Shown one piece after another: positions 2,435-43,874 of a DNA stretch of 64,000 bases. The first letter of the stretch is position 1. Every line of letters starts with the position of its first letter. Source of the stretch: a virus (Duplodnaviria; Caudoviricetes); IMG/VR virus record IMGVR_UViG_3300014204_000113, positions 123,989-187,988 of that record, one strand, 5' to 3'. The position numbers and the translations under genes were made by a program. A model generated the notes under the pieces. The model did not search any database, was not told the origin of the DNA, and was given only the letters and a program-made list of their open reading frames with translations.

Positions 2435-2560
2435 ATATCCAACTGGATATTGTGTTGTAATGTTCTGTGTTGTGTGGCGCTGTAGTGTAATGTTAAGTCC
2501 TGTAGTGTGGCGTAGTGTGTTGTTATGTGTTCTATTCTAAGGGGATTCTGTATTGAATCC
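2435..2560 (+). ncRNA. 5-nt-period TGT-NN array (18 units, 2451-2540) flanked by hairpins; putative guide RNA
   Basis: 13 TGT units plus GGC, AGT, CGT and two TCT; hairpins ATATCC/GGATAT (2435-2450) and GGATTC/GAATCC (2543-2560); intergenic, directly upstream of RAMP-like gene. Confidence 0.7.
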
Positions 2561-2586: not shown

Positions 2587-3153
2587 ATGAAAATTAAAGT
2601 TACAATTCAAGGAACAGTTCCAATTTTATTTAATCGTTTTGCAGAAGAGAATGAAGTTAAAGTTGCTTCTGGAATTAATCCAGTTCAAGGAGGACAAAGA
2701 GGAACGCCTAGAGAACAAGCAGAAAAGAAACTATATCAAGACGTGGATGGGAATTTGTTTCTTCCAAGTCCTATGTTATTTTCTTGTTTAGTAGATGCTG
2801 GTAAATTCCATAAAGTGGGAAGAAATAAAGTTACGACTCAGAAGACTTCTTTAGTTCCTGCCGGTATATCTGTTGAAGAATTAATCATTCCGTTTAATAC
2901 TAAAGATTGGGAAATTGATTCTAGAAGCGTTGTGATACCATCTACTGGTGGTAGAATCATGTGTCACAGACCCCGGCTTGATGAGTGGCAATTAACTTTC
3001 ACTTTGGATGTTGATACAACAATGTTTGATCCTAAGTTTGTTAGGACTCTTATGGATGATGCAGGCAAGAAATGTGGCTTGGGTGATTATAGACCTAATC
3101 GTAAAGGGCCATTTGGTAAATTTGTTGTGATTAATTGGGAAGAAGAAAAATAA
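2587..3153 (+). CDS. stand-alone RAMP/Cas7-like protein (putative Vipr-type RNA-guided effector)
   Basis: N-terminal strand KVTIQGTVPIL, LFLPSPML..CLVDAG, RPR..W.LTF, C-terminal G-rich loop GLGDYRPNRKGPFGKF; AAGGAG SD; adjacent 5-nt arrays. Confidence 0.7.
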   Translation: MKIKVTIQGTVPILFNRFAEENEVKVASGINPVQGGQRGTPREQAEKKLYQDVDGNLFLPSPMLFSCLVDAGKFHKVGRNKVTTQKTSLVPAGISVEELIIPFNTKDWEIDSRSVVIPSTGGRIMCHRPRLDEWQLTFTLDVDTTMFDPKFVRTLMDDAGKKCGLGDYRPNRKGPFGKFVVINWEEEK

Positions 3154-3497: not shown

Positions 3498-4054
3498 ATG
3501 ACAGTATGGTTCAGTGGAGACCAGCATCTTTCGCATGACTCTAAACATGGAGGAATAATCCAATATTGTAATCGTCCATTTGTAAGTTTGAAAGAAATGA
3601 ATTCAGTAATTATTGATAGAATGTTAGAAAAAGTTCATAAAGGAGATACATTATATTCTTTAGGCGATTTAACTTTCAAAAAAGATGTTGCTTTAAAGTT
3701 TGTTGAAATAATTAAAAAAAATAACATCAATTTAATTTATATAAGAGGGAATCACGATAAAAATATCCTTCCTATTTTGAACACAGAAGGAATAAAAGTA
3801 TATGATTTATTAACAATAAATATTGCAAAACAACCTATAGTTTTGTGCCACTATGCGATGAGGACTTGGGACAATGGAGTTGCCATAACTCTTGGCAACT
3901 CCATTGTCACAGTCACCACACACTATCTCCGCAAGGTAAACAACTAGATTGTGGGGTGGATGGATTTGATTTTTATCCAGTTTCTTATGATACGGTAAGA
4001 AACATTATGAAGACAAGACCTGATAATTTTAATTTAACGAAAGGTAGAATTTAA
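3498..4054 (+). pseudogene. calcineurin-like metallophosphoesterase, frameshifted near 3870-3878
   Basis: GDQH, LGD, GNHD, LCHYAMRTW in one frame; SWQLHCHSH and DCGVD in another frame ending 4054. Confidence 0.75.
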
Positions 4055-4201: not shown

Positions 4202-4303
4202 GGTCTGGTTAGGTTAGGTGAGGTGAGGTCAGGCTGGGTGGGGTGCGGTAAGGTGTGGTATGGTAGGGCGAGGGAACTGACTCATTTACAGATGAGTCAG
4301 TTC
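4202..4303 (+). ncRNA. GGY-NN array (14 units) with 12-bp 3' hairpin; putative guide RNA
   Basis: 14 consecutive GGT/GGC trinucleotides at exact 5-nt spacing (4202-4271); GAACTGACTCAT/ATGAGTCAGTTC stem 4274-4303 followed by ATTTT. Confidence 0.8.
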
Positions 4304-4345: not shown

Positions 4346-4789
4346 ATGGACTTTCTTGTTCTCTCAAGGCAACAATCTGAATTGATTGACCCAACTAAAA
4401 GCCATATTATCATATCAATTACAGACCCATTTGATGTTCCTGCCAATTTATTTCCGAATGATAATTGCAAAGGAATATTGCAATTATCATTCCATGACAT
4501 TGATTCAGAAGTTATAGCAGACAAACATAAATTGGAATTGTTTACGAGAGAACAAGCAAGAAAAATTCTTGATTTTGTTGATGAAAATATAAACAATATC
4601 GAATTGATTATCGTAGCGTGTGAGGCTGGTATCAGTAGATCATCATCTGTTGCCGCTTTTTTAAGTGAGATATATAATGGACATGATTCTGGTTTCTTTA
4701 GAACTCATATTCCAAATAGGTTTGTTTTTAAACAATTGATGTATGAACATGAGAATATAAATATAGAGGACATGTTTTTAAACAATTGA
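4346..4789 (+). CDS. protein tyrosine/dual-specificity phosphatase-like protein
   Basis: IISITDP, FHD, CEAGISRS (CX5R) motif. Confidence 0.8.
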   Translation: MDFLVLSRQQSELIDPTKSHIIISITDPFDVPANLFPNDNCKGILQLSFHDIDSEVIADKHKLELFTREQARKILDFVDENINNIELIIVACEAGISRSSSVAAFLSEIYNGHDSGFFRTHIPNRFVFKQLMYEHENINIEDMFLNN

Positions 4790-4827
4790 TGTATGAACAT
4801 GAGAATATAAATATAGAGGACATGTTT
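4723..4827. repeat. perfect 50-bp tandem duplication
   Basis: 4723-4772 equals 4773-4822, with TGTTT microhomology. Confidence 0.95.
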
Positions 4828-4855: not shown

Positions 4856-5020
4856 ATGATGATTAATTGTTTATGTGATAAGATTAATTCATTTATAAGA
4901 TTTATTATATTTATTCTAACCTTATTTCTACTTGCTTTTGGAGGATTATTTGTTTTAATTGGACAAGGAATCTTATTTGTCGCTGAAAAAACAATTGTTT
5001 GTTCATTAAAGGAGAAGTAG
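4856..5020 (+). CDS. small membrane protein
   Basis: AGGAGG SD, 54 codons with hydrophobic core (read by hand). Confidence 0.5.
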   Translation: MMINCLCDKINSFIRFIIFILTLFLLAFGGLFVLIGQGILFVAEKTIVCSLKEK

Positions 5021-5023
5021 TTA

Positions 5024-5206
5024 ATGGCTTTGAAATTAACAATTTATAGAGAATTCATCTTAGACGATTTATGGGGAACCAAAGAAGAATTTGACGAACT
5101 AGGTGAAAATACATTTCTAGATATGATTGCTGATGCAGACCCATTAAGTATCATTGAAGAGGCGGGTGGCTTTAGAGAAATATTTAGAAAATTAGAATGG
5201 ATTTGA
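5024..5206 (+). CDS. hypothetical protein
   Basis: AAGGAG SD; last + strand gene before convergence. Confidence 0.6.
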   Translation: MALKLTIYREFILDDLWGTKEEFDELGENTFLDMIADADPLSIIEEAGGFREIFRKLEWI

Positions 5207-5565
5207 AAATAATAGTTATTGTATATCTTTCTACTATTGTTGTGGAGGCTGGAACTGCTGGAGTTAAGTTGTTTCCCCAAATACTACGGACATACCCGAC
5301 TCTCAACGCCCCGGACACCCTCATCTTTTGTGACTGTCGTGGTCTTCCGTAACACCGTAGACGCTATGGCCTCTCCGGTTTGCTTCCAAGCGGTTGCGGC
5401 AGAGTTCACCTCATAAGAAGCAGACGTGGCTACCGTCCAGGCCCGACAAAATGGATAACCCAGTCTGGCATATTGATTTCCCTCCCTTCACTGCGTGGCT
5501 GTTTGTTAACCCAAACTACTGAATCCACATATTAATCTGCGCATCATCAATCCAGGTTATCCTAT

Positions 5566-6012
5566 TCATGCCAATTCTACTCTCCCCAGGAGAACTTCAA
5601 GTTTTACCTTGGGATCGGACAAGTCATTGGGAGTGAAATCAATCACCGGAGTTTTCCCAGCTATGATCTCCGCTTTGAGGGTGTAATACTGTCCCAGGAC
5701 GCTTTGTACCCAAACCCAAGCCGCTTCGATTGCCGCTTTGAGTTCCGGGGTTGCAGAAGGGCCAACATAGAGGGCCGTGAAGCTTTGCTGTGTGCTCTGG
5801 GCATAGTGCGAATAGATATAGCTGTGCAGTGCTGTTTCCAACGCTGCCAGCCGAGAGTCAATCAATTCTTGTGCCAGCAACGCCGCCCTCTCAGGGAACG
5901 CCGCAAGCTTTTCATCTTCGGTAAGTTCACGGTCAAACACAACCTCCCAGGGTTGTTCCATGCCGAGGTCGATTGATCGCACACTATTGCCATTGTCTGA
6001 ATACGCAAACAT
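5566..6012 (-). CDS. tail fibre assembly/chaperone-like protein
   Basis: directly after tail fibre gene, GGAG SD; assignment by position. Confidence 0.55.
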   Translation of the reverse strand: MFAYSDNGNSVRSIDLGMEQPWEVVFDRELTEDEKLAAFPERAALLAQELIDSRLAALETALHSYIYSHYAQSTQQSFTALYVGPSATPELKAAIEAAWVWVQSVLGQYYTLKAEIIAGKTPVIDFTPNDLSDPKVKLEVLLGRVELA

Positions 6013-6022
6013 TGTTGATCTC

Positions 6023-7759
6023 CTAAAGGTTATCTATCCAGCCATAACAAAACAAGTGAGCGTTAGCATTGTTGGATGCATAATAGATGTTAGTACTTTC
6101 AAGCATCAAAGCAGCCACGCCACCCAAAGCTACGGAAATTGAATATAATAATGGACTATTGGTGTAATTGCCCCAACCTCCATAGGAATTATTAGGAGCC
6201 ACTATAATTTGCACATCTGACAGTGCATAGTTTATGATAATTTGGGCGGCAGTCGGAGGTACAAAGTTACCAACTGCAACAGCTACCCAAGTTGGTGTAC
6301 TAATATTTCCTTGTACCCCACTTGCCATCGTGGGCAATCCAGTGCCGGTATTGATATACTGGACCGACTTATCTTTTTGAATAGTTCGCAGCAAATTGGC
6401 GCTTGCATCTGCCCGCACCCACCCTAACCGGGCAGCATAAGTATAGCCATCTGGCAACGTCGGGGCCGTGGCAGAGAGGGAAAGCAGCCCAGCCAGATCA
6501 TCCGTGGTGGGGTTATAGGCCGCATGGACGGCATACCAAGTGCTAACTGCAACCGTCCCCGTATCAAGACCACCCGCCCCGGAAACTGCGGTATCTATGT
6601 CAATATCAACTGTCCGCACCGTCTTGTATTTGTTGTCAGGGTCCTCAAGTACCACTTCGTCGGCAGTGACAGTAATCTCCGTGTTAGATGTAACCTGTAT
6701 TTGGAGGTTGCTTGCCTGGCCCTTAATGCCGACTTTGCTGGGCTCAAGTGATTCAATACTTACCCCACTATCACCTTTCCATTCACCATATTTAATATAG
6801 ACCAAAGACCCATAGACAATAGTTCCTGCCCCATCAAATATCTGATATGGACCAGCGTCCAGGGTCCCATTAATTGTCAGGGTTTTTCCGACAGCTATCG
6901 TCAGGACATTACCGGGCGGGATGACCAAATTAGTGGCGACATTGATGGCCATGTCATCAGAGATCGTTGCTGTTTCGGTTATTTCCAGCCGGGTATCTAC
7001 CGACCCAATACAGGCTATGGCCGTCGCCAGGTCCGCAAACCAACCGGAATACACAGTAGACCCGGCGGCAAAAACTACCTTCCCCGTGCCGGTGCAGGAG
7101 AAGATTTGATAGAGGCCGGCGTCGAGGGAGCCGTTGATAGTAAGAGTTTTGGTAGTAGCTACGGCAAACGGTACCCCCGGCTGAACCGTAACCATCGGGG
7201 CTGCCAGGGTCACATCGTCGTCAATCGTGTAGGCGTAGGTGATGCGCAGTTCTTTGTCCGCCGCAGCCGCCACCGCATCCGCAGTTTCCAGGGCGGCTCG
7301 GTCGGTGCCGTAATCCCGGGCCACCACGTAGCCCGGGCCATTGGGCCACAGGCCGTCTCGGGTGGCAACTACATAGACTCGGGTGATTGGATCCGTAAGA
7401 ACAGTGTCCGACAAATTAACTGTGGTGGTAGGCGCAGCGTAAGAAGATGAGGCCACAGTGGAATAGGCCATCCCAGCGGCCACCTGGACCTGCACCACAG
7501 CACCAGCGGCGAATCTGGAAGTGTAGTCGCCGGGCAAGGTAAAAGTGTCAGCGTCAGAATAGGTGCAGGTGACTGGGATCATGGTCACGATCTGATCTTC
7601 AATAGCCCAATTGTTAATTAAATCTGGTAAAGGAACAAGAGTCTGTAAAAAAGCATCTGTGGCATCCAGGGCAGCATTATATGCATTATAAGCAGTAGGA
7701 CCACTTTCTCGATAAGGAGGCTTTGGAAAAAAATTATTGGGAGTATATTCCATAGTCAT
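6023..7759 (-). CDS. tail fibre / receptor-binding protein
   Basis: Thr/Ala/Gly-rich; repeated KTLTINGxLDAGxYQIF motif; GAGGLDTG..ST WY and SATAPTLPDGY..ARLGW motifs. Confidence 0.75.
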   Translation of the reverse strand: MTMEYTPNNFFPKPPYRESGPTAYNAYNAALDATDAFLQTLVPLPDLINNWAIEDQIVTMIPVTCTYSDADTFTLPGDYTSRFAAGAVVQVQVAAGMAYSTVASSSYAAPTTTVNLSDTVLTDPITRVYVVATRDGLWPNGPGYVVARDYGTDRAALETADAVAAAADKELRITYAYTIDDDVTLAAPMVTVQPGVPFAVATTKTLTINGSLDAGLYQIFSCTGTGKVVFAAGSTVYSGWFADLATAIACIGSVDTRLEITETATISDDMAINVATNLVIPPGNVLTIAVGKTLTINGTLDAGPYQIFDGAGTIVYGSLVYIKYGEWKGDSGVSIESLEPSKVGIKGQASNLQIQVTSNTEITVTADEVVLEDPDNKYKTVRTVDIDIDTAVSGAGGLDTGTVAVSTWYAVHAAYNPTTDDLAGLLSLSATAPTLPDGYTYAARLGWVRADASANLLRTIQKDKSVQYINTGTGLPTMASGVQGNISTPTWVAVAVGNFVPPTAAQIIINYALSDVQIIVAPNNSYGGWGNYTNSPLLYSISVALGGVAALMLESTNIYYASNNANAHLFCYGWIDNL

Positions 7760-7773
7760 TTATTTATCCACCC

Positions 7774-9009
7774 TTAACTTGGAAGTCGATATGCAACCCG
7801 ATAGCAATTGTTTGCATAAATATAATATTTACAGTTCAATATGCCTATATCAACTGTGCCCCAAGCTGAATCCCCAGTTACTGAAGTGCCAGAGTCTACG
7901 GTTTTGTTGGTAAGTAATGGATGGCCCGCTACGGCCCGTTCACCACTAAGCCACATTGTAAGTCTGGCTTCAGTCGCCATTGGGCAGGCAATACGAATAT
8001 CTTCCACAACGACAGAGCCAACAGAAATTTCATGGTTTCCGGTGCCCAAATTCCATTGGATTAAATCTCCGCACTGAATAAACCCGTCTATATTACTTGA
8101 TGCATTGTTCAATATATTGCCGATCCATCTGAAATTCGTGGCTGGCAAAACGATAAACCAGTCCCCTTGGGTCATGGTCAAAGCAGTACCGGAATATTCA
8201 ATGGTGCCTCCAGTGGCATCATTATTGTTATTGTGAATGATGGGGCGCATTAGCCCCTTACTGGCACCAGATAAGACATAGATCATGGCCCCAATAAGCT
8301 CATCTGTGGTAAACCCATAACCGATGTTTGCGGCGTTCAAATTATTACGAAGCGTGATAACCTGGGAAGCCTGGGAACTGAACCGCATGAAAGGCATGGC
8401 CTTAAGTTCAAAATCGGTGTCGGTGTCTCCGGCCAGTGCAAAAATGGCATACCATTGCGAGGCCTTCTCCGTTTGGGTGGTCCCGTACAGCCCGCCAGCC
8501 CCAAAAATGCAGGAGACATTAGCCGTAATCGTTCTGACTTTTCCGTCGCTAAGTCCGCCGTCCGCCTGGCACACGGGGTTCATAATATTCGGCATCCCGG
8601 TCAAAGCTGTTTCGGCAGGGCAATCGGCGGTGGCTTCAACCCGTATCGTCCCGGCGTCTACCCACACCAGGGGCGGCTTCAGACGTACTGAGGGCTGGCT
8701 TTGGATTTGATTTTCCAGTGCCAGAAAATCAGCTTTGGTTATTGGTTGCCGCCCGAAATCCACCGTCTCGGTGCCTGCAAAAGTCTCAGCAACGTAGGTG
8801 GCCGTGATAACAATTTCGTTAGTGGTTTTTGAGTTAATTGCATAAGCACCATCGTAATTGGTAGTCCCCGCAATGACCACCACTTGCTCTGCCAAAAACG
8901 CATGGCCAGTAATAGGTAGTCCGACTTCTCCGCCACCCTTGTCTACGGCTGCGGCATTATCTATAGTATCAGATACCGCAGGTTGCCACTTTGGATTAGG
9001 AAAGGTCAT
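7774..9009 (-). CDS. tail / tail fibre-associated protein
   Basis: beta-rich, WYAIFA motif, tail-module position. Confidence 0.6.
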   Translation of the reverse strand: MTFPNPKWQPAVSDTIDNAAAVDKGGGEVGLPITGHAFLAEQVVVIAGTTNYDGAYAINSKTTNEIVITATYVAETFAGTETVDFGRQPITKADFLALENQIQSQPSVRLKPPLVWVDAGTIRVEATADCPAETALTGMPNIMNPVCQADGGLSDGKVRTITANVSCIFGAGGLYGTTQTEKASQWYAIFALAGDTDTDFELKAMPFMRFSSQASQVITLRNNLNAANIGYGFTTDELIGAMIYVLSGASKGLMRPIIHNNNNDATGGTIEYSGTALTMTQGDWFIVLPATNFRWIGNILNNASSNIDGFIQCGDLIQWNLGTGNHEISVGSVVVEDIRIACPMATEARLTMWLSGERAVAGHPLLTNKTVDSGTSVTGDSAWGTVDIGILNCKYYIYANNCYRVAYRLPS

Positions 9010-11741
9010 TATGTTTCTCCCAAAAATCTTACGAGCGTTAAGGCAGTGTCCCGGCTACCCTGGTCAAGATTTACTTCTTTAGTTCGGACCTGATAGTTTT
9101 GCGCCTCATCATTCAGCAACTCATCCCGGAGACTTACTGTATCGGTCATTAATTCCAACCTAGCGCCAGCAAGTGACATACTTACTGGTTCAATAATGTC
9201 TTTGGCTGAAAGGAACTTGAGCAACAGTTCAGCCTTGGCAGACATAACGTCCCGAATTTCGCAACATACCATGTCATCCCAGGTACAAGAAAGAGATGTC
9301 CCTTGTCCCCCAGCCTCCTGGATTCCGGCCAGGTAAAACAAGGAGGGGTTTCGGGCATACCAACCATAAACCACAGAGACAAAGGCATTAACCTCAGTCA
9401 AATCTATGGTCTGACTATTTTCCCATTTATTCGAAGCCGTGAGTGCCAGTACCGGGCCAACCGGCGGGGTTCCAGCGTAAGGAATTATCTTGATTTTCCC
9501 GGAGTCCATGAAAAACCAGTACATCATTCTAGAACAGATTTCTTTTATTGCATCAGAGGCAGATATTCCCAGATTAGCAATGTCTTTGAGCCCCCGTTTT
9601 TCCAGACTCCCACCTTCAAATCTCGAATGGATAATGTCATCAGGTGCGGCTATATATGCATCAGATAGGACATCAGCATCGATATAATCTGTCAGGCCAT
9701 AGGTTGCTAAAAATGCTTGGATTCCCGCTAAACTTTTAGTACAAGTCAGCCACTCGTCTACCATGTCATCAAAGACGGAAAAGGAAGCTAACTCTGATAA
9801 TCCGTTTAAAATAATTACCCCTAGATGGTCTAGGGCATGGCGCCCTCCGGCATGTTCAACCACCCGGATAAGCACATCCCCATCTGGATCAAAATCAGGG
9901 TCGGTAGATTCAAACTGGACCATGCCATATTCAGGATATCGAGTAAGCGTCTGAGTGTAGGCCCCCCCCTCAACTGTCTTGCTTGCGGGTTGCGCCAGAT
10001 TATCAATGTATATCGGGCCAATGGATTCAAACGGACCACCATATACTTGATAGGCGTTATGGTAATACTTCGACCTGATTTCAAGATCATCAAAGTCAAC
10101 AGTCCATGATTCAGACACTGCACTAGTAACAGCACCTATTCTGAATTTCATAGGAGAAGCTGCGGAAAAATCAGCACTGTAATTCATCACCACGTCGCCG
10201 TTAATCCACAATACTGCGCGCCCTGTTGTAACTGGTGAATACCACATAGCAAATGTTAATGGCACATCAAGGTAAGCCAAGATGTTGAAATCACATTGAC
10301 CACCTGCGTTAGTATAAATCGCTCCGGTTTCGTCTACATACACATAAAAATAAGCTGAAACTCCAGTAGCATCGACAATACTTAGGATAGTAGTGTTAGC
10401 AGAAGTTGGTGTAGTCGGAGCCACTACAACTCTAAAAGTTCCGGTAACAAATATCTCCCCCGCCGACCCTAATGATAATTCTCCGTATGCTGACTGACTA
10501 GCCCCTGTGACTTCACATCTGACTGCTCTGTTTCCGGTAAGTCCTGGGGTTATCAGTGAAATAACCCCCCCACCAGCAGCAACTATATGATCCAGTTCGT
10601 TAAAATTGTTTTCCTCAAAATAGGCAGACCGGGCAATGGGGGCAGGGGACCAACCGGACACCGCCTGGCCTTCACAGAGAAATTCCCCGAGAATGAGAGG
10701 GTTTGGGGTTCCATCCGCAGCAGGTAAGGCAATCCGTTTTTTAAGGCAATCGCTGATAAAATCCTCTGCGTACACTTCAACATTATTTGGCGACCCTACA
10801 GCCCTAGTCACTGGTCCCCATTGCTTCACCAAACCATGAAACAGAGTGATGAACTCAGTGAAATTATCTGCCATCCATTCGTCTTCACCCCACTCAGAGG
10901 TAAACCAACCACCTTTTGACCAGCCGAGTTGAATTTTCAGTTGGAGATTATACCAATCCTGTCCTGCCAAAAAGAAACTGCTTTTGTCTGGGGAAAACAA
11001 AGGGGTCGGGGTTTTGACATATTGAATTTCTTCACCAGGGACTATTACTGTAACCTCATCAGAAAATTGGCGGTTATTTAACAACAACCCTGAATGTGAT
11101 CCAGCCACCAGGTCATCAAATGCCGTGGGCGCTTCCATGGAAACGCTGCCAACTTGCTCAATATCCCGGACAATGGCAAATTCTCCCAGGGGTTCGATAT
11201 CTTTCACATAGGTAAGCAAGTCCCCGGACACGTTCTGGTCTTCAGCATATCCTTGGTAGACACTTGCAAATATCGTATCCTCTGCCCAAGTGCTAAAATC
11301 ATTGGTGGTGGCTAAACTTTCTTCAACCCAGGCCCGGACACCTTCTATAGTTATCTTAAATTGGTAGTAAGGATAAATAATAATCGTGTCACCAGATTCG
11401 ATAGCAGTCCAGGCAGCGGCGGCAAAGGCCGTTATATCGTTGGCACTACGATAAAAAACAGCCAGGTCATATCCTGGTGAGTTCCAATCCCAAGTTATGA
11501 CCGCCGGTGACGTAGGCTCCTGTAAATTAGAAATCAGCGCCTCTGATATCCAATATCCACCAGTAAAGCCATGAAAGTCAGCTTGGATTCGATCCGTGGA
11601 TATAAAAGAACACTCCACAAAATTACCATCGGCATTGACCCCGTTCGGCCAGATATAGGGCAAGAAAACAGCACGAACCGCTGGTTGTGCCCCAATGGTC
11701 AGAGCCTCATATGCTATGAAATCTGCGCTAGCCAGGAGCAT
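9009..11741 (-). CDS. large tail tip / baseplate-hub-like protein
   Basis: 910 aa, second gene after tape measure; assignment by position. Confidence 0.6.
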   Translation of the reverse strand: MLLASADFIAYEALTIGAQPAVRAVFLPYIWPNGVNADGNFVECSFISTDRIQADFHGFTGGYWISEALISNLQEPTSPAVITWDWNSPGYDLAVFYRSANDITAFAAAAWTAIESGDTIIIYPYYQFKITIEGVRAWVEESLATTNDFSTWAEDTIFASVYQGYAEDQNVSGDLLTYVKDIEPLGEFAIVRDIEQVGSVSMEAPTAFDDLVAGSHSGLLLNNRQFSDEVTVIVPGEEIQYVKTPTPLFSPDKSSFFLAGQDWYNLQLKIQLGWSKGGWFTSEWGEDEWMADNFTEFITLFHGLVKQWGPVTRAVGSPNNVEVYAEDFISDCLKKRIALPAADGTPNPLILGEFLCEGQAVSGWSPAPIARSAYFEENNFNELDHIVAAGGGVISLITPGLTGNRAVRCEVTGASQSAYGELSLGSAGEIFVTGTFRVVVAPTTPTSANTTILSIVDATGVSAYFYVYVDETGAIYTNAGGQCDFNILAYLDVPLTFAMWYSPVTTGRAVLWINGDVVMNYSADFSAASPMKFRIGAVTSAVSESWTVDFDDLEIRSKYYHNAYQVYGGPFESIGPIYIDNLAQPASKTVEGGAYTQTLTRYPEYGMVQFESTDPDFDPDGDVLIRVVEHAGGRHALDHLGVIILNGLSELASFSVFDDMVDEWLTCTKSLAGIQAFLATYGLTDYIDADVLSDAYIAAPDDIIHSRFEGGSLEKRGLKDIANLGISASDAIKEICSRMMYWFFMDSGKIKIIPYAGTPPVGPVLALTASNKWENSQTIDLTEVNAFVSVVYGWYARNPSLFYLAGIQEAGGQGTSLSCTWDDMVCCEIRDVMSAKAELLLKFLSAKDIIEPVSMSLAGARLELMTDTVSLRDELLNDEAQNYQVRTKEVNLDQGSRDTALTLVRFLGET

Positions 11742-12118
11742 TAGATTTCCTCAAAACTTACATCAAATGAATACAATTCTTCCCCATTGTAAAAAGCTTC
11801 TTCTGATGTTGGGGCTGGGCAATCCACCATCAATACTGTAGCATCAAGATTGGTTCCATCTAAATACAAATCTATAGGACATTGAAAATCCCAAAGTGTT
11901 AAAAAATAATCCTTTTGAGATTTTTCAACTAGAGTAAAAGATAAATCATATTTCTTTTTTGTTGGCCCTGAATATCTAAGACTAGTTCCATCAAAAGTTC
12001 TGACATCATCATTAAGATTTATTCTTGTTCCTGGACTATGGCCGAAATCAAAGTTTTGTGGGAAAATATATGTAACTTGATCTGGATCGCCAGATGGGTA
12101 AATGAGTTTTCCATTCAT
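11741..12118 (-). CDS. distal tail protein-like
   Basis: RTFDGT motif, C-terminal SFEEI, directly after tape measure. Confidence 0.6.
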   Translation of the reverse strand: MNGKLIYPSGDPDQVTYIFPQNFDFGHSPGTRINLNDDVRTFDGTSLRYSGPTKKKYDLSFTLVEKSQKDYFLTLWDFQCPIDLYLDGTNLDATVLMVDCPAPTSEEAFYNGEELYSFDVSFEEI

Positions 12119-12125
12119 GTTTTAT

Positions 12126-15100
12126 TTATCTCCCACTACCAATACTTTGACCACGATTACCAATTTCTTTATTAATCGCTTTAACGATATGTTTTGCATC
12201 CCGTTGATAATCAGCTTCAGTTGCTTTGTATCTATAAGTTGGAGAATGAGTTACATTAATATTATAAGCATTAGAAGTACCACTACCATTTCCACCTACT
12301 TGACCATTATTAAGCATATCAAAAGTGATACCCTTTCTTGAATACAAGTCCATTGTTGACCGTTTAATGATACCTTCACCTACTTGAGCCTTTATCATTC
12401 TCTCGTCTACCATCAAACCAGCATGAGCAACGCCATAACCTACAACACCACCAGTGTGATAACCTTCAGTATATCCACCACCAGTAGATTGCATACCAGG
12501 ACTAGCACCTAAACCCGAGCTTCCTCCACCGCCCCCCATATTACCAAACATCATAGTGGCAACAAATGCGGCGGCCGCGGCTATGGGAGCAGCAACAACA
12601 TTAAATGGAAAAGGTACTGCTTCCCAGACTGACCTAAATGCAGCAGCAGCAGCCCTACCAGCATCCATCAAAATTGCTGCTTTAGCTAACGCAGAAAAGA
12701 TTTGAATTGCCTTAAGAGCGAAACCAATTATACCAACTATTCTTGAAGTATTACCTTCAACGCCAGCAGCAGTCATAAGACCTTGTGCTACACCCCAAAT
12801 ACTAGTCATATTCTCTGTCATATCAGTAAATGAATCTTGGTAATCATTTATATAATCAGAAGTAAAAGCATCTTGGTTATTTTGTATCCAATCGCCTTGT
12901 ATATCACTATAAGTATCTCCTTCTTTAATCCACCCTTTAAAAGAAGAATCTACTAATCTATCAGTCTTCCTCCAATCTTTTTGTAATCTATTGTTGTCTC
13001 TAATCAATTCATCAAACGGACTCTTAGTTCTGAATTGTTTAGATAATTTAGTAAGTCCGCCAAGTTCACTACTAATATCATCATCCTTATGTCTCCCGCC
13101 AATTGAATAAGCTGTCTTTTTAGCTTTCTTCATTGTTCTATCAAACTTAGAATCAGGTAATATGGATTTATCCAATCCTGGCATATTAGCTACTTCTACA
13201 TACATCGGATTAGTTTTAGTCCCTAGAACACCTTTACCAAATAATGAACTTAAAAAACTTCCTTCTTCTTTACCACTAGATTTAACAGGATTTAATAACC
13301 CTCCAATTAAATCAAAACCTCTAGAAACTCCCATCTTCATTATTTGTTTAACAAAAGTTTCGCCTAAATCCCAAAACATATCTTCAAGTATTATTTTCTT
13401 TCCTCTAATACTATCAATAAAAGCTGTGCCAGCCATATCTCCTATTCCAGATTCAAGATTGTCCATTAATGCTTTGAAATCAGCAGCACCACGTTTACTT
13501 GCTTCGTTAGCTCTTTCTACTCCATAAATTTTTGCACCGCCAGCAAATCCTTGAGTTTCCCATTTTTTCATTTCAAGTTGTAATTTTTCTGCTTCTTGAC
13601 TTTGTTTATGAAGACTGCGTAAACGATCTTCATCAAAGCCAGCAGATTTCAAAGCGTATTCATTTTTCTTAATCCATATCTCCAATTCATTCAAACTGAC
13701 TTTTTGTTGGATATTTAAACTTTCTTCCTGATATCTCAATTGGTCTGTGTATAACAAAGAATTGGAAGCAAGATTAGATATATGTTTATTTATTTCATTT
13801 AACCATGTATTTTGCTGTTCCAAAGGTCTGTTTTGTTGATTAATATTTTCTGCACGTTCTTTTTCTATTGCTAACAAATTATTGTTTTGTCTAAGTAAAT
13901 TAGCAGTTCCTTCGTCTAATCCATTCAATCTAATCAATTGTTCTACTTTTGCTTGGTCAATCATAAGTTCAAAATTAAGTGCTTTTTTGCTATATTCATT
14001 TTGCTTTTCTGCTGGAATATTCATCGCAACTAATGTGCTATAAGAACTTTTCATAATTTCGTTTATTTTTAGAAAATTATCCATGGAAGCCTTATCTATT
14101 GCAAATGCTTGTTTTTTAGCTTCCATCTGTTCTTGAGGCATTCCAAGTTGTGTTGTCAATTTATTTTGTGCAGTACCTCTCATTCCCTGAAATTCACCAA
14201 CAACTTTGGTTTGTGATTCATGGAAAGCAAGTGCTTTAGCAAGTTCTGTAGAAGGAAGGCCAGCAATATTTGTTTCTCGTCCAGCGCCCAATCTATTCAT
14301 TAAAAACGTTAGATATTCTTCGGTATTATTTTCATTGGGAGGAGCATATTGATAAATAAATTTTTCAAGGGAAAGTTGTTCTGATTGTCTTCTCTCCACT
14401 TGTTTTACGAGAGCACTAAAGCCAGCTTCAGCACTTGGGAAAGCGGTGAATTTGTTGCTTATAGGAGATACAAAACCTCCTTGTTCAGCTTGATATTGAT
14501 ATGGTTGGCCAGTTCCTTGGTTATAAGTTAATAAACCTGGATTGTTTAACGGTAAAGCTTTTCCTGATTTACTTCTATCTTCTGGAATGATAACTTGAAA
14601 TTTATCAAGTCCAGTAGGTGTAGAAATAGAACTACCAATAAGTCCTCTCATCTCAGCAGCAAATTTATCTGTATTAAAACCACCTGCTCCTATCCCTAAA
14701 GATTTTTTTAATTGATCTTCTCCAGTTGGAGGAACTTTTCCCAAATCAGTAACTTTTCCTATCAATCTGTCCAAACTATCAATAACGCTATCTATTTGTG
14801 TCATCCATGTTTGACCAAATTTTTTTCCAGCAGCGTCCATCACTTCGGAAGCAGTCTTGGCGTTTTCAATCAATTTTAAAAGTGGATCACCATTCAATTC
14901 ATCCATAGCTCCAGCAGAAGGGGCAGTTTGATATTTCCTGACAAATTCTTCATGTTGTAATAAAATTTTCTTATATTGATTATCTAATGTTTCTGGCACA
15001 CCTTCCAATGAATAAGCATAAATTTCCCTGTTTCTTTTTTCAAATTCTTGAGCGATAATTTGATCGCGTATATCTTTTAATTTTTGTTCATATGATGAGG

Positions 15101-19167: not shown

Positions 19168-20484
19168 TCAAATATCCAACATATTTGCTATCTTATTTTT
19201 GTTATAATATCTTTTGTTTACCATTTCTGAATAAAAAGATTGATGCCATTCTCTATCAAAATTGGCCTTGGTGTTACAAGAGGTGCATAATGTAATTAAA
19301 TTCTTGGGATGGCAATTTAATTTATTATAATCAAGATGGTGAATTGTTAATTTATTATCATATTTTTTATTACATAGTGGATTAAGACACATATAATTAT
19401 CACGCTCTTTAATACTTTCTTTGTATTCTTTATCTTTCCACACACAACAATATGGTTCATAAGATTTACCACCTTGCCAATTATAATTGTTTGAACCACT
19501 TTGTGAAATAGATGATTTTATACTGCCACATTTTCTACATCTATGACCTTGAGAAAAACTATTATAAGAAATAAAAGATATATTTCCACATTCACATTTA
19601 TATTTTAATTTTTGATGACATCCTTTATATTCATTAAATAATGGAACACAACCACCTTCTATAAATTTTTCTTTAACAAATTCTAAACTATGTCTTATTT
19701 TATCTGAAAATTTTATAATCCCACATTCTTTACATCTATGGCCTCGCATAAGATTATCAAATGATGTATAAGAAATATTTCCACAACTGCATTGATATTT
19801 TAATTTTGTTCTAGCATCAATATATTCATTAAAGAGAGGGATGCAACCACCTTCTACAAATTTATTTTTTACATATTCAAGACTGTGTTTGCTATTGATA
19901 TTGCTTCTTTCAATTCCACATTTTCTACATCTATGACCATTACAGAAACCATTGAATGTGATTTGTGATTCATTCCCACAACTACATATATATTTTAATT
20001 TTTGTTGTGCATTTATATATTCATTAAATAATGGGATACATCCTTCTTCTATAAACTTATCTCTTACATATTCTATATCCAATCTTTTCTTTTCTGAAAT
20101 TCTTTTACCAACACAATTTGAACATCTTGATCCAGATTTAAAACTCGAAAAAGTTATAAAAGATATATTTCCACAATTACATCTATATCTCATTTTAGTG
20201 TGGTTATTTTTATAATTATCTTCTAAACATTCACACCCATTATCAATAAAAACTTTTTTGACATAGTTAAAATCTAATTTATAAAGTTCTTTATTTTTAT
20301 CAATATTACAAAATTTACATCCACTACCATTTTTTAAACCATTAAGACTAATTTTTGTTATATGACCATTATTACATTTACATTCAAGTGGAATTCTAGC
20401 ATACTTATATTCATTTTCTAATAAAACAAATCCTCTATTCTTAAATTCCCCCCTTGCTATATCTATAGTTATAATTTTAGACAT
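19168..20484 (-). CDS. HNH endonuclease with tandem Zn-ribbon repeats
   Basis: repeats of GCxPLFNEY..KLKYxCxCGN..F..GHRCxxC; RDNYMC..IHH.DYNK.N..NL.TLC.SC. Confidence 0.8.
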   Translation of the reverse strand: MSKIITIDIARGEFKNRGFVLLENEYKYARIPLECKCNNGHITKISLNGLKNGSGCKFCNIDKNKELYKLDFNYVKKVFIDNGCECLEDNYKNNHTKMRYRCNCGNISFITFSSFKSGSRCSNCVGKRISEKKRLDIEYVRDKFIEEGCIPLFNEYINAQQKLKYICSCGNESQITFNGFCNGHRCRKCGIERSNINSKHSLEYVKNKFVEGGCIPLFNEYIDARTKLKYQCSCGNISYTSFDNLMRGHRCKECGIIKFSDKIRHSLEFVKEKFIEGGCVPLFNEYKGCHQKLKYKCECGNISFISYNSFSQGHRCRKCGSIKSSISQSGSNNYNWQGGKSYEPYCCVWKDKEYKESIKERDNYMCLNPLCNKKYDNKLTIHHLDYNKLNCHPKNLITLCTSCNTKANFDREWHQSFYSEMVNKRYYNKNKIANMLDI

Positions 20485-40140: not shown

Positions 40141-41100
40141 TTAATCTTTCTGTGGTAAAATACAAAAATTATCCCCTCTTTTGTTTTGTAATCTTACATA
40201 ACCAGGATAATTTTTTCTTAATCGTTGGCGAAAAGCATTTACAGTTATTCCAACAAATTTAGCTGCTTCTATTGTACTTTCAAATATCATCCCATTCACT
40301 TCAACTGGAATTTTACTTTTATCCCCAATTTTTCTTTTAGTTTCTCCAGAAGGATGTTTGCCAAATAAATAATGTTTCTCACCAGAATTTAAACCTAAAT
40401 GTGACTCACTATTTTTTCTTCTTGATTCTTCTGAATGTTTCATGCCAAGGCATGGATGAACATTATTAGAATAAAACTCAATAAGAAATTCACTAATTTT
40501 CTTTTTTGTTTCTTCTGTATGACGACAGCCAAAAAATGGGTTCTTTTCACCAACTTGAACTCCTTTAAATCTATCGCTCACTATTTGTTTTTCTTCTGCG
40601 GAATAAATTCTCCCAAAATTGGGGTTCAATTCTCCTTTCCATCTTTCACTCAATTCTTTTTTATGTTCTTCTGTATGTTTCTTTCTTTTTTGAAATATTC
40701 TTAACCATTGTATAATTTCTTCTGTATGTCTATACCCAACACTGCCTTCACCACCATCAGTTAGGTTGGCAAGGCATCCCGTACCATTGTTTATTCTTCC
40801 ATATTTAGCAATCAATTTCTTTTCCAAAGCAAACGCTTCTTTTTCAATTAAATTGTCAAACAGTATAACTTCTTTGAAGTCTGAATTATTTTCCCAAAGT
40901 GTATGGATTATATTAATCTTAATATCTTTTCTTCCAGATTTATTTAAAAGTTTATTTGCTTCTTGTCTATGACGATACATTCTCCAATCACAACCTTTAC
41001 CAAAATAAAATGGTTGCCACAACCAAATATAGAATGGATCAGGATAATCTGGTCTTAATAAAACATAGACATAAAAACAATTCAAATCGGCAGTAGCCAT
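40141..41100 (-). CDS. GIY-YIG (LEM-3-like) endonuclease with NUMOD3-like repeats
   Basis: same N-terminal motifs as 36498 ORF; HTEETKKKIS repeats. Confidence 0.8.
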   Translation of the reverse strand: MATADLNCFYVYVLLRPDYPDPFYIWLWQPFYFGKGCDWRMYRHRQEANKLLNKSGRKDIKINIIHTLWENNSDFKEVILFDNLIEKEAFALEKKLIAKYGRINNGTGCLANLTDGGEGSVGYRHTEEIIQWLRIFQKRKKHTEEHKKELSERWKGELNPNFGRIYSAEEKQIVSDRFKGVQVGEKNPFFGCRHTEETKKKISEFLIEFYSNNVHPCLGMKHSEESRRKNSESHLGLNSGEKHYLFGKHPSGETKRKIGDKSKIPVEVNGMIFESTIEAAKFVGITVNAFRQRLRKNYPGYVRLQNKRGDNFCILPQKD

Positions 41101-43094: not shown

Positions 43095-43430
43095 CTAGAA
43101 TTTAATAGACTTAATATATTCTGACATATCTGAAAAATAGGCTGGATGCTTCTCAACCTCCCATCCTTTTCTCTTAGCAGTATCAGCTAATATTTTTAAC
43201 GCTTCTTCAGATTTCCAGCATAACGGATTGCCGTCTGGCCCATTAATCCTTTCCCAACCTCTACTCTCCCAGCCGCATTCCTCTTCATTCTCTAACATCC
43301 TTGACACTTTTGTGAACACATAATTATCTGAACTATAAGCAAATTCACGAAGATAAAGAACACCTTGTTGCATCACTTCCTTCGACAAATGCAAAATTTC
43401 TACTGATTCTTCATTGTTGTTTTCTGTCAT
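43095..43430 (-). CDS. hypothetical protein
   Basis: AAGGAG SD. Confidence 0.65.
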   Translation of the reverse strand: MTENNNEESVEILHLSKEVMQQGVLYLREFAYSSDNYVFTKVSRMLENEEECGWESRGWERINGPDGNPLCWKSEEALKILADTAKRKGWEVEKHPAYFSDMSEYIKSIKF

Positions 43431-43530
43431 TATTTTCTCCTTTTCTCTTTATAGGAGGTTTTTTCTTTTTATTGTCATCTCTGTGTATCATTTTTGTCAA
43501 CAGAACTTCTAATGGAATTAGGTCTCCCAA
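43411..43530 (-). CDS. 39-aa ORF (MGDLIPLEVLLTKMIHRD...), gapped match to adjacent array
   Basis: GAGGAG SD, TTG start; below ORF-track cutoff. Confidence 0.5.
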   Translation of the reverse strand: MGDLIPLEVLLTKMIHRDDNKKKKPPIKRKGENNDRKQQ

Positions 43531-43554
43531 TTTTTTCTCCTCTAAAAATAAAAA

Positions 43555-43644
43555 ACCATACCCTAGCCTACCCTACCATACCTTACCGTACCAAACCAAA
43601 TCACACCTGACCATACCGGACCATACCAAACCTCACCCCACCAT
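43555..43644 (-). ncRNA. GGT-NN array (18 units); putative guide RNA
   Basis: 16 GGT plus GAT and GCT at exact 5-nt spacing on the minus strand, intergenic, followed by T-run. Confidence 0.8.
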
Positions 43645-43676
43645 ATTAGAAATTATTTATATTCTTTTATTTTTTC

Positions 43677-43874
43677 CTACTCATTTTCTACAATTAATCT
43701 GCCAGAAAAAACAAACACTGGTTCATAACTTTCAGCACAATCCAAACAGAAAAAAGTTATAGACAATTCCCTTAAAGAATCATCATCCATTTCAACTTCT
43801 GTATTTGGAGATACCCTATCGCTTCCACAATAAGGACACAATTCAGGACTACCTTTGATTTCTTTGCTATCCAT
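43677..43874 (-). CDS. small Zn-ribbon protein
   Basis: CPYC, CLDC. Confidence 0.6.
   Translation of the reverse strand: MDSKEIKGSPELCPYCGSDRVSPNTEVEMDDDSLRELSITFFCLDCAESYEPVFVFSGRLIVENE

Follow-up and report, generated by a model that had tools for sequence, protein, structure and literature searches.

A candidate solo VIPR guide array linked to a less well matched allele of its probable target gene in a phage genome

How does a tract of tandem GGT-NN pentamers in a phage genome come to spell a gapped near-copy of the very gene that it precedes? The tract lies on the minus strand of the window, by which we mean the whole stretch of 64,000 nucleotides analysed here (positions 123989-187988 of a genome of 187,988 bp, hereafter G000). 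We propose, with a probability of roughly 0.8, that the tract is a solo vrRNA directed at the allele of the adjacent gene found in sister phages that lack the array, and that the resident copy is less well recognised.

The system to which such a guide would belong, VIPR (Viral Interference Programmable Repeat), a relative of CRISPR, was described in 2026 (bioRxiv 10.64898/2026.04.26.720920). There, Vipr is a small ancestral RAMP protein and the vrRNA consists of 9 to 16 GGY/NN repeats with a tail. The NN bases pair with double-stranded DNA and one base is skipped per unit, mostly at the wobble position of the codon (10.64898/2026.04.26.720920). A PAM is not required, both strands can be targeted, and binding leads to repression of transcription, the systems studied silencing rather than cutting (10.64898/2026.04.26.720920). 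The natural targets are rival phages and satellites; the cut-off for a natural target is an NN match of at least 80%, and no self-hits above it are reported in the same part (10.64898/2026.04.26.720920). According to the structural report, Vipr protomers bury the GGY, present bases N4 and N5 and flip out the third target base (10.64898/2026.04.26.720927). Solo vrRNAs, defined as having no vipr gene within 20 kb, lie far from any vipr and match their own genome less well than they match relatives, as stated in a further report (10.64898/2026.10.15.759431). Alleles, guide-target adjacency and homing are not mentioned in the searched sections of the three VIPR papers. An NN-x code that ignores wobble changes had been derived for this locus independently, and it is the '1-nt skip rule' of the published system.

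The tract (array M) and its surroundings are organised as follows:

43677..43874, minus strand: upstream 65-aa zinc-ribbon gene, whose stop codon borders the cassette
43531..43676, minus strand: whole inserted cassette of 146 nt, absent from sister phages
43642-43553, minus strand: array M, 18 pentamers in an unbroken, perfect 5-nt register free of indels
43578..43644, minus strand: guide part of vrRNA M, AT plus 13 GGT-NN units (one a GAT variant)
43553..43577, minus strand: 3' end of array M, five GGT/GCT units with AG, AG, AG, AT and TT
43411..43530, minus strand: 39-aa small ORF (putative target gene) with a TTG start at 43530, kept in relatives
43489..43530, minus strand: resident near-target, comprising codons 1-14 of the small ORF and matching guide M at 23/28
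43095..43430, minus strand: downstream 111-aa gene in this operon, through which syntenic loci were retrieved

A vrRNA would be expected as a small RNA of approximately 100 nt that is recovered together with Vipr. By the measure used for vrRNA repeats (GGY plus NN in a strict 5-nt register over at least nine units) array M is one, with 18 units. Sixteen of its fixed triplets are GGT, one is GAT and one GCT. The dinucleotides run in strict register as originally listed, with a final TT to be added, and the AT at 43644-43643 that precedes the first GGT is a further unit in the published YNNGG register. The last five units probably form a 3' tail rather than guide, since they match no target and resemble the terminal motif of GGT arrays. 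Indeed, the end of array M is similar to that of array B and to a terminal motif common to the GGT arrays of G000. When array M was examined for a structured tail, this shared motif was present, no hairpin or pseudoknot was evident and the fold had a z of -0.5. One relative, with 10 nt inserted at 43561, differs in the number of units.

The cassette is composed, in order, of a 32-nt A/T-rich leader, array M, a T-run and a new ribosome-binding site, GGAG (43540-43537). The small ORF lies downstream on the same strand, from its TTG at 43530 to 43411; it begins 22 nt after array M, and the gapped match begins at 43527. No Rfam family was matched by the array M RNA or anywhere else in the window, which, together with the lack of a significant fold of its own, is consistent with a single strand coated by protein. 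Pfam returned nothing for the small ORF or the 111-aa protein. A blastn search of the locus against GenBank phages gave matches only in arrays of Felixounavirus and none in the flanking genes. The public runs that hold the G000 phage are DNA runs only.

Read as NN-x from 43527 onward, guide M matches the resident gene at 22 of 26 bases over the first 13 units, nine of them perfectly, and the last units match poorly, exactly as first reported; all 18 units together score 25/36. With the leading AT included, the 14 pairs match at 23/28 strict, and overall the NN match to the resident is 82-85%. It had been conceded that such scores might be common among shuffled strings. They are not: 22/26 is the top score of approximately 128,000 window positions on both strands (runner-up 18), and only 1 in 1000 shuffles of unit order or of bases attains 22 anywhere in the window. 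Within 1 kb of array M none of 300 shuffles does so, the maximum being 18. Sliding 10-unit scans of the carrier's own genome detected no significant self-target for any of its 13 arrays; only full-length or local tests set M, H, J and D apart from shuffles. The TTGACA pointed out inside the match is present at 43500-43495. It is not conserved in most relatives and is thus probably incidental. A scan for promoters and terminators beside array M returned only a TTGACA-GACAAT pair within the target, likewise non-conserved, and no terminator.

The decisive comparison is with phages that lack the cassette. The sister genome G001, an IMG/VR contig of 189,632 bp, is approximately 84% identical to G000 over 107 kb, and its copy of the 111-aa neighbour protein is 96% identical to that of G000. 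Its locus (L011) has no array. The ATG of the small gene follows the zinc-ribbon stop by three bases, and in the BLAST synteny positions 167521-167668 of G000 correspond to only 5 nt of G001. Five more loci (L024-L028) were fetched via homologues of the 111-aa protein, giving six array-less loci from other assemblies with five distinct alleles. The alleles were scored over the 14 presented pairs including AT, either strictly or with guide U allowed opposite target G:

L028: 27/28 strict, 28/28 with U.G
L027: 26/28 strict, 28/28 with U.G
L024, L025 and L026: 25/28 strict, 28/28 with U.G
L011 (G001): 25/28 strict, 27/28 with U.G
Resident allele of G000: 23/28 strict, 25/28 with U.G

All array-less alleles are thus natural targets by an NN match of at least 80% with the skipped base at the wobble position (25-27/28, in frame). 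The proposal that the guide is aimed at a competitor's allele from which the resident copy has escaped is supported by these scores, set against the 23/28 of the resident. The alignment of the leading AT with the start codon is also borne out, because every array-less allele begins with ATG and the AT of guide M matches it. The peptide MGDLIPIQVLLTKM, which had been decoded from the guide, is encoded exactly by all array-less alleles except that of G001. In four of the five alleles the sole remaining mismatches are swaps between the leucine codons CTN and TTR at the first base, where the guide reads TT, and at these CTN mismatches a guide U could pair with the target G. The G001 allele has one extra mismatch beyond the leucine swaps. 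Differences among the array-less alleles of the small gene are almost all synonymous. A search of related phages had been suggested; it did yield better-matching alleles at the syntenic locus, none of which attains a strict 28/28, and an exact-pattern scan of IMG/VR for a perfect 13-unit target was empty. A metagenome pattern scan for the conserved downstream stretch returned the G001 contig alone.

Both forms occur together in samples. The public runs X1-X4 derive from landfill and groundwater; X5-X22, which have small word shares, were left out as evidence. X2, X3 and X4 each contain an array-bearing and an array-less contig, although X2 and X3 share contigs of equal length and are perhaps not independent samples. 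The array-less allele of X4 matches guide M at 27/28. In the array-bearing contig of X4, among the differences listed, guide and leader are unchanged and the resident-type codons 7 and 8 are kept; its flanks are approximately 7% different.

The resident allele departs from the array-less ones at three paired positions: the start codon (ATG to TTG), codon 7 (ATT to TTA) and codon 8 (CAA to GAA). All three changes are transversions. These resident states are found in no array-less allele, from which we infer that they are derived, and they may well protect the carrier. The target (43489..43530) differs from its relatives by 17-24%, the downstream flanks by 7-19% overall and the upstream gene by 0-9% in the two closest relatives. 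The array-less L027 is identical to the window over the upstream gene (121/121) and 93% identical downstream, with 7 of the 42 target bases different. In G001 9 of the 42 target bases and 7-8% of the flanks differ. Even so, the 82-85% NN match of the resident exceeds the threshold of at least 80% set for natural targets in the first VIPR paper.

Every guide of both genomes was scanned against both genomes with shuffle controls, and six have a clear match in the other genome. Five of the six are at the level of shuffles in their own genome, guide M (23/28) being the exception:

Guide M (G000): 25/28 in the other genome, 23/28 on its own allele
Guide A (G000): 21/24 in the other genome (first ten units 20/20), 17/24 on its own allele
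Guide B (G000): 24/28 in the other genome, 20/28 on its own allele
Guide g1_01 (G001): 31/34 in the other genome, 19/34 on its own allele
Guide g1_04 (G001): 24/28 in the other genome, 19/28 on its own allele
Guide g1_06 (G001): 32/36 in the other genome, 26/36 on its own allele

The five guides besides M match the other genome at 86-91% and their own allele at 56-72%. All six cross-genome matches keep the reading frame, the skipped base falling on the wobble position, and by BLAST synteny the targets lie 22-359 nt from the position that corresponds to the attacking array. Arrays M, g1_01 and g1_06 are each present in one genome and missing from the other, as is a block in which array B, a DUF559 protein, array C and vipr1 lie together. 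Arrays A and g1_04 are syntenic and differ in their guides; each guide matches the other genome's copy of the upstream gene. Six guides thus make a guide beside the probably resistant allele of its own target the rule in this pair of genomes and not a peculiarity of one locus.

Arrays H, J and D of G000 adjoin locally significant near-matches. The near-target of array H (L015 799-861, genome 112598-112660) is formed by the last 21 codons of an upstream epimerase-like gene and abuts the array; it scores 29/42, the middle eight units 15/16. For array J (L016 approximately 1240-1290, genome approximately 116740-116786) the near-target is on the opposite strand within the next gene and scores 19/22 over 11 units. 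Both near-targets are identical in G000 and G001, and no sensitive alleles were found for H or J.

Is there a Vipr protein to carry guide M? G000 encodes three Vipr paralogues, 27-40% identical to each other, and has 13 arrays, of which 12 are on the plus strand and array M is the thirteenth. Besides array M, the window contains two arrays and one of the vipr genes:

2451..2540, plus strand: TGT-NN array K, the leader of vipr paralogue 3
2587..3153, plus strand: vipr paralogue 3 (phrog_4652), the nearest vipr to guide M, which encodes a 188-aa RAMP protein resembling Cas7
4202..4276, plus strand: GGT-NN array L, after which come a perfect hairpin and a T-run

In genome coordinates the nearest vipr is at 126575-127138 and array M at 167541-167630. 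The distance of approximately 40 kb exceeds the 20 kb of the published definition, which makes array M a solo vrRNA. Paralogue 3 aligns at 23% identity (E 2e-12) with the protein that Escherichia phage VpaE1 encodes between its arrays, and the alignment includes the glycine-loop motif at the C-terminus. VpaE1 is a Felixounavirus, as is the model VIPR phage SUSP1. The top Foldseek matches of its AlphaFold2 model (pLDDT 79) are Cas7 of type VII and Csm3. Pfam returned nothing for the Vipr paralogues. Other viral contigs encode homologues with GGC arrays at their flanks. The original prediction had named the 2587-3153 protein for tests of binding or repression. That it is a Vipr paralogue is upheld, but it is preceded by an array of the TGT type and the GGT guide may load elsewhere, perhaps on the paralogue flanked by GGT arrays approximately 84 kb away.

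The core VIPR region of G000 (L014, genome 81500-89500) is situated behind a recA homologue. It begins with array B, a 104-aa DUF559/Vsr-like protein (L014:1213-1524), array C, vipr1 and a DUF7352 protein, and continues further on with array D, vipr2, two arrays of the GGC type (E and F), a 225-aa protein without a Pfam match and array G. G001 has nine GGT arrays, none of the three vipr paralogues of G000 and no copy of the DUF559 nuclease-like gene. A distant tblastn match (22% identity, E 2e-5) is present near its recA region at 155067-155621 (L036), and G001 may use a different type of Vipr. The Felixounaviruses JohannRWettstein (L009 2990-3240) and VpaE1 (L010 2850-3080) contain GGY-NN arrays with a conserved leader. 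No protein-coding gene is annotated between those of JohannRWettstein, in which this phage is like the VIPR-null phages with solo vrRNAs of 10.64898/2026.10.15.759431.

Several other features of the window were observed. Between vipr paralogue 3 and array L a calcineurin-like phosphoesterase gene (3498-4054) appears split into overlapping frames, 3498-3947 and 3845-4054; a sequencing error or a frameshift may be the cause. At 4723-4827 there is a perfect 50-bp tandem duplication, and at 19515-20073 a 195-bp tandem repeat (2.8 copies, 72-75% matches). Positions 5000-12300 form a GC-rich island of 43-52% GC, compared to approximately 32% around it, which encodes large tail-fibre-like proteins on the minus strand (e.g. 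6023-7759 and 7774-9009). Most of the island has no BLAST counterpart in G001, and it may be a swapped host-range module. Downstream of the guide locus, at a distance of 2.3 kb, is a 319-aa gene (40141-41100). The syntenic counterpart in L024, likewise of 319 aa, has GIY-YIG/NUMOD homing-endonuclease domains (precomputed Pfam); if the 319-aa gene is likewise a homing endonuclease, it would be a protein-based selfish element in the neighbourhood of the guide.

By analogy with the published mechanism, array M would be transcribed with its operon and coated by Vipr. The protomers would polymerise along the RNA, each burying one GGT and presenting the next two bases, and the presented dinucleotides would pair with one strand of the DNA, each third base of the target being flipped out. 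The 13-14 dinucleotides of the guide would then correspond to codons 1-14 of the small gene in the form carried by array-less sister phages. In a co-infection, guide M and Vipr would bind the start of the small gene in the sisters, with silencing, a block of replication or cleavage as conceivable effects on the rival. The three changes at paired positions of the resident mean that the carrier would be recognised less well than its rivals. The guide and its resistant allele would be inherited jointly, as the 146-nt cassette and the adjacent codons. Recombination in co-infection would otherwise yield a guide together with a sensitive target, and tight linkage of 'poison' and 'antidote' would therefore be favoured. 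The sister phages share the targeted gene, however, so that pure transcriptional silencing could be complemented in trans.

This last difficulty argues for an effect in cis and leads to an addition that we regard as tentative and rather doubtful, namely that the cassette spreads by RNA-guided 'intronless homing'. Either guide binding or a nuclease acting with it would damage the array-less allele in a co-infecting sister, and repair by recombination with the carrier would copy the cassette along with the resistant codons. At six loci in the two genomes, guide cassettes are indeed presence/absence polymorphisms, with their targets 22-359 nt away. The target in the array-less allele adjoins the insertion site and the carrier allele is less well matched. 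Divergence is locally raised at the target, with L027 a mosaic, and guide and leader are unchanged, among the differences listed, in a relative with approximately 7% flank divergence. The core VIPR locus, moreover, lies behind a recA homologue and has the DUF559/Vsr-like 104-aa protein between two arrays. Against this, the VIPR systems studied silence and do not cut, the DUF559 protein (predicted to be nuclease-like) is 84 kb from guide M, and G001, which has neither these vipr genes nor the nuclease, displays the same arrangement. The adjacency can also be accounted for by poison and antidote being tightly linked, with no homing involved. The two explanations of why a guide adjoins an escape allele are compatible with each other, and homing would extend the preferred explanation (a guide against array-less sisters) rather than replace it. 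If true, it would give VIPR guides a means of spread and explain their scatter through the genome beside their targets.

Three further readings would dispense with a sister-phage target or with a guide. The original prediction had allowed that the guide weakly represses its own locus, and one could suppose that it binds its own imperfect neighbour site and tunes the downstream genes in cis, rival alleles being irrelevant. What stands of this is the resident match of 82-85%, above the published cut-off of 80%, at a site where the downstream genes of the operon begin. We nevertheless consider it unlikely, given that the array-less alleles outmatch the resident in every case, that the derived resident changes all lower the match, that self scores below non-self in six of six guide-target pairs and that the TTGACA within the site is not conserved. 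It is also quite improbable that the adjacency reflects only the origin of the guide and not its function, new vrRNA guides being written from neighbouring sequence. No mechanism is known by which GGT would take the place of each wobble base, target sequence is not duplicated in the cassette flanks and some targets are 250-360 nt away. Such a birth would fit a guide that starts exactly at the start codon and a cassette inserted exactly at the 5' edge of the target, as well as the near-targets of H and B, which abut the array or lie just upstream; the available VIPR literature mentions no adaptation machinery. Finally, the tract could be no guide at all and the match fortuitous, if it were a protein-binding leader of the TRAP type, a G-rich structure or simple repeat DNA. 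TRAP sites have the form (GAG-NN)n, with a period of 5 nt and a fixed triplet, which array M resembles, and its GG runs could form two-tetrad quadruplexes. This we hold to be extremely improbable in view of the shuffle statistics, the 27/28 match in natural alleles, five further specific in-frame matches across genomes and the presence of vipr genes; an array of the TGT type would not form quadruplexes. The TRAP-like leader was rejected because it requires spacers free of information and those of array M spell a specific target. The ideas of a G-quadruplex or a primase site were dropped in light of the significant gapped match and the VIPR papers.

The VIPR code and system are already published. 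What is added is a well-documented natural case of a guide linked to an escape allele, and reciprocal targeting between sister phages. No new mechanism is revealed; the locus is of value for the natural history of a system first published only months ago. Environmental sequence reveals the guide, its natural sensitive targets and the escape allele of the carrier, and individual samples contain both forms. The locus provides a concrete test case of self versus non-self, in which three transversions are set against three leucine-codon swaps that a guide U might read, and the guide-target pairs are a ready set for measuring the mismatch tolerance of Vipr. Complementation in trans by shared genes is a problem for a model of silencing only. 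The findings point to linkage, or possibly homing, as the reason why solo guides are dispersed.

Among known systems, the Class 1 CRISPR-Cas backbones (Cas7/Csm3 on crRNA) share the RAMP fold and the periodic interruption of the guide-target duplex. Their period is 6 nt with five bases paired, whereas that of VIPR is 5 nt with three bases buried and two paired, and the locus described here has no repeat-spacer array. A closer biological parallel may be drawn with the free-standing homing endonuclease genes of T-even phages (SegF, SegG, MobE), which are known for 'intronless homing' and marker exclusion. In both cases some phages carry a small cassette that their close relatives lack, the target is in the neighbouring gene of cassette-less genomes, and a few polymorphisms protect the carrier or, for array M, would do so. 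The specificity of array M differs in that it would reside in an RNA guide for a protein encoded elsewhere.

With published VIPR of type II (Escherichia phage SUSP1, Pseudomonas fulva prophage) the locus shares tandem GGY-NN pentamers with hypervariable NN, as far as these are described in the available part of 10.64898/2026.04.26.720920. A small Cas7-like Vipr in the genome, one skipped base per unit at the wobble position and targets in rival phages are also common to both. Array M has 18 units, compared to the 9-16 reported there, and in place of the pseudoknot tail, which is not evident here, it ends in a short terminal motif of the same pentamer type. Three divergent Vipr paralogues, 13 dispersed arrays and a TGT dialect further set G000 apart from what is described in the available text. 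In that text there is no self-hit of at least 80% NN, while the resident neighbour in G000 matches at 82-85%.

The solo vrRNAs of satellites and of VIPR-null SUSP1-like phages, as presented in the available part of 10.64898/2026.10.15.759431, are the nearest relatives in kind. Like array M, 40 kb from the nearest vipr, they are guides far from any vipr gene. They too match self less well than relatives, which is proposed there to avoid autoimmunity, and they are located where relatives carry the target, in that case vipr (10.64898/2026.10.15.759431). Unlike the solos described in that part, array M has a carrier with a VIPR of its own. Its putative target is an ordinary small gene of sister phages, whereas those of the solos are vipr, vrRNA, a satellite or a host repeat. 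Two differences from the solos described there concern the arrangement itself: the insertion of guide M borders directly on its target, with an escape allele linked to it, and the targeting between the two sister genomes is reciprocal.
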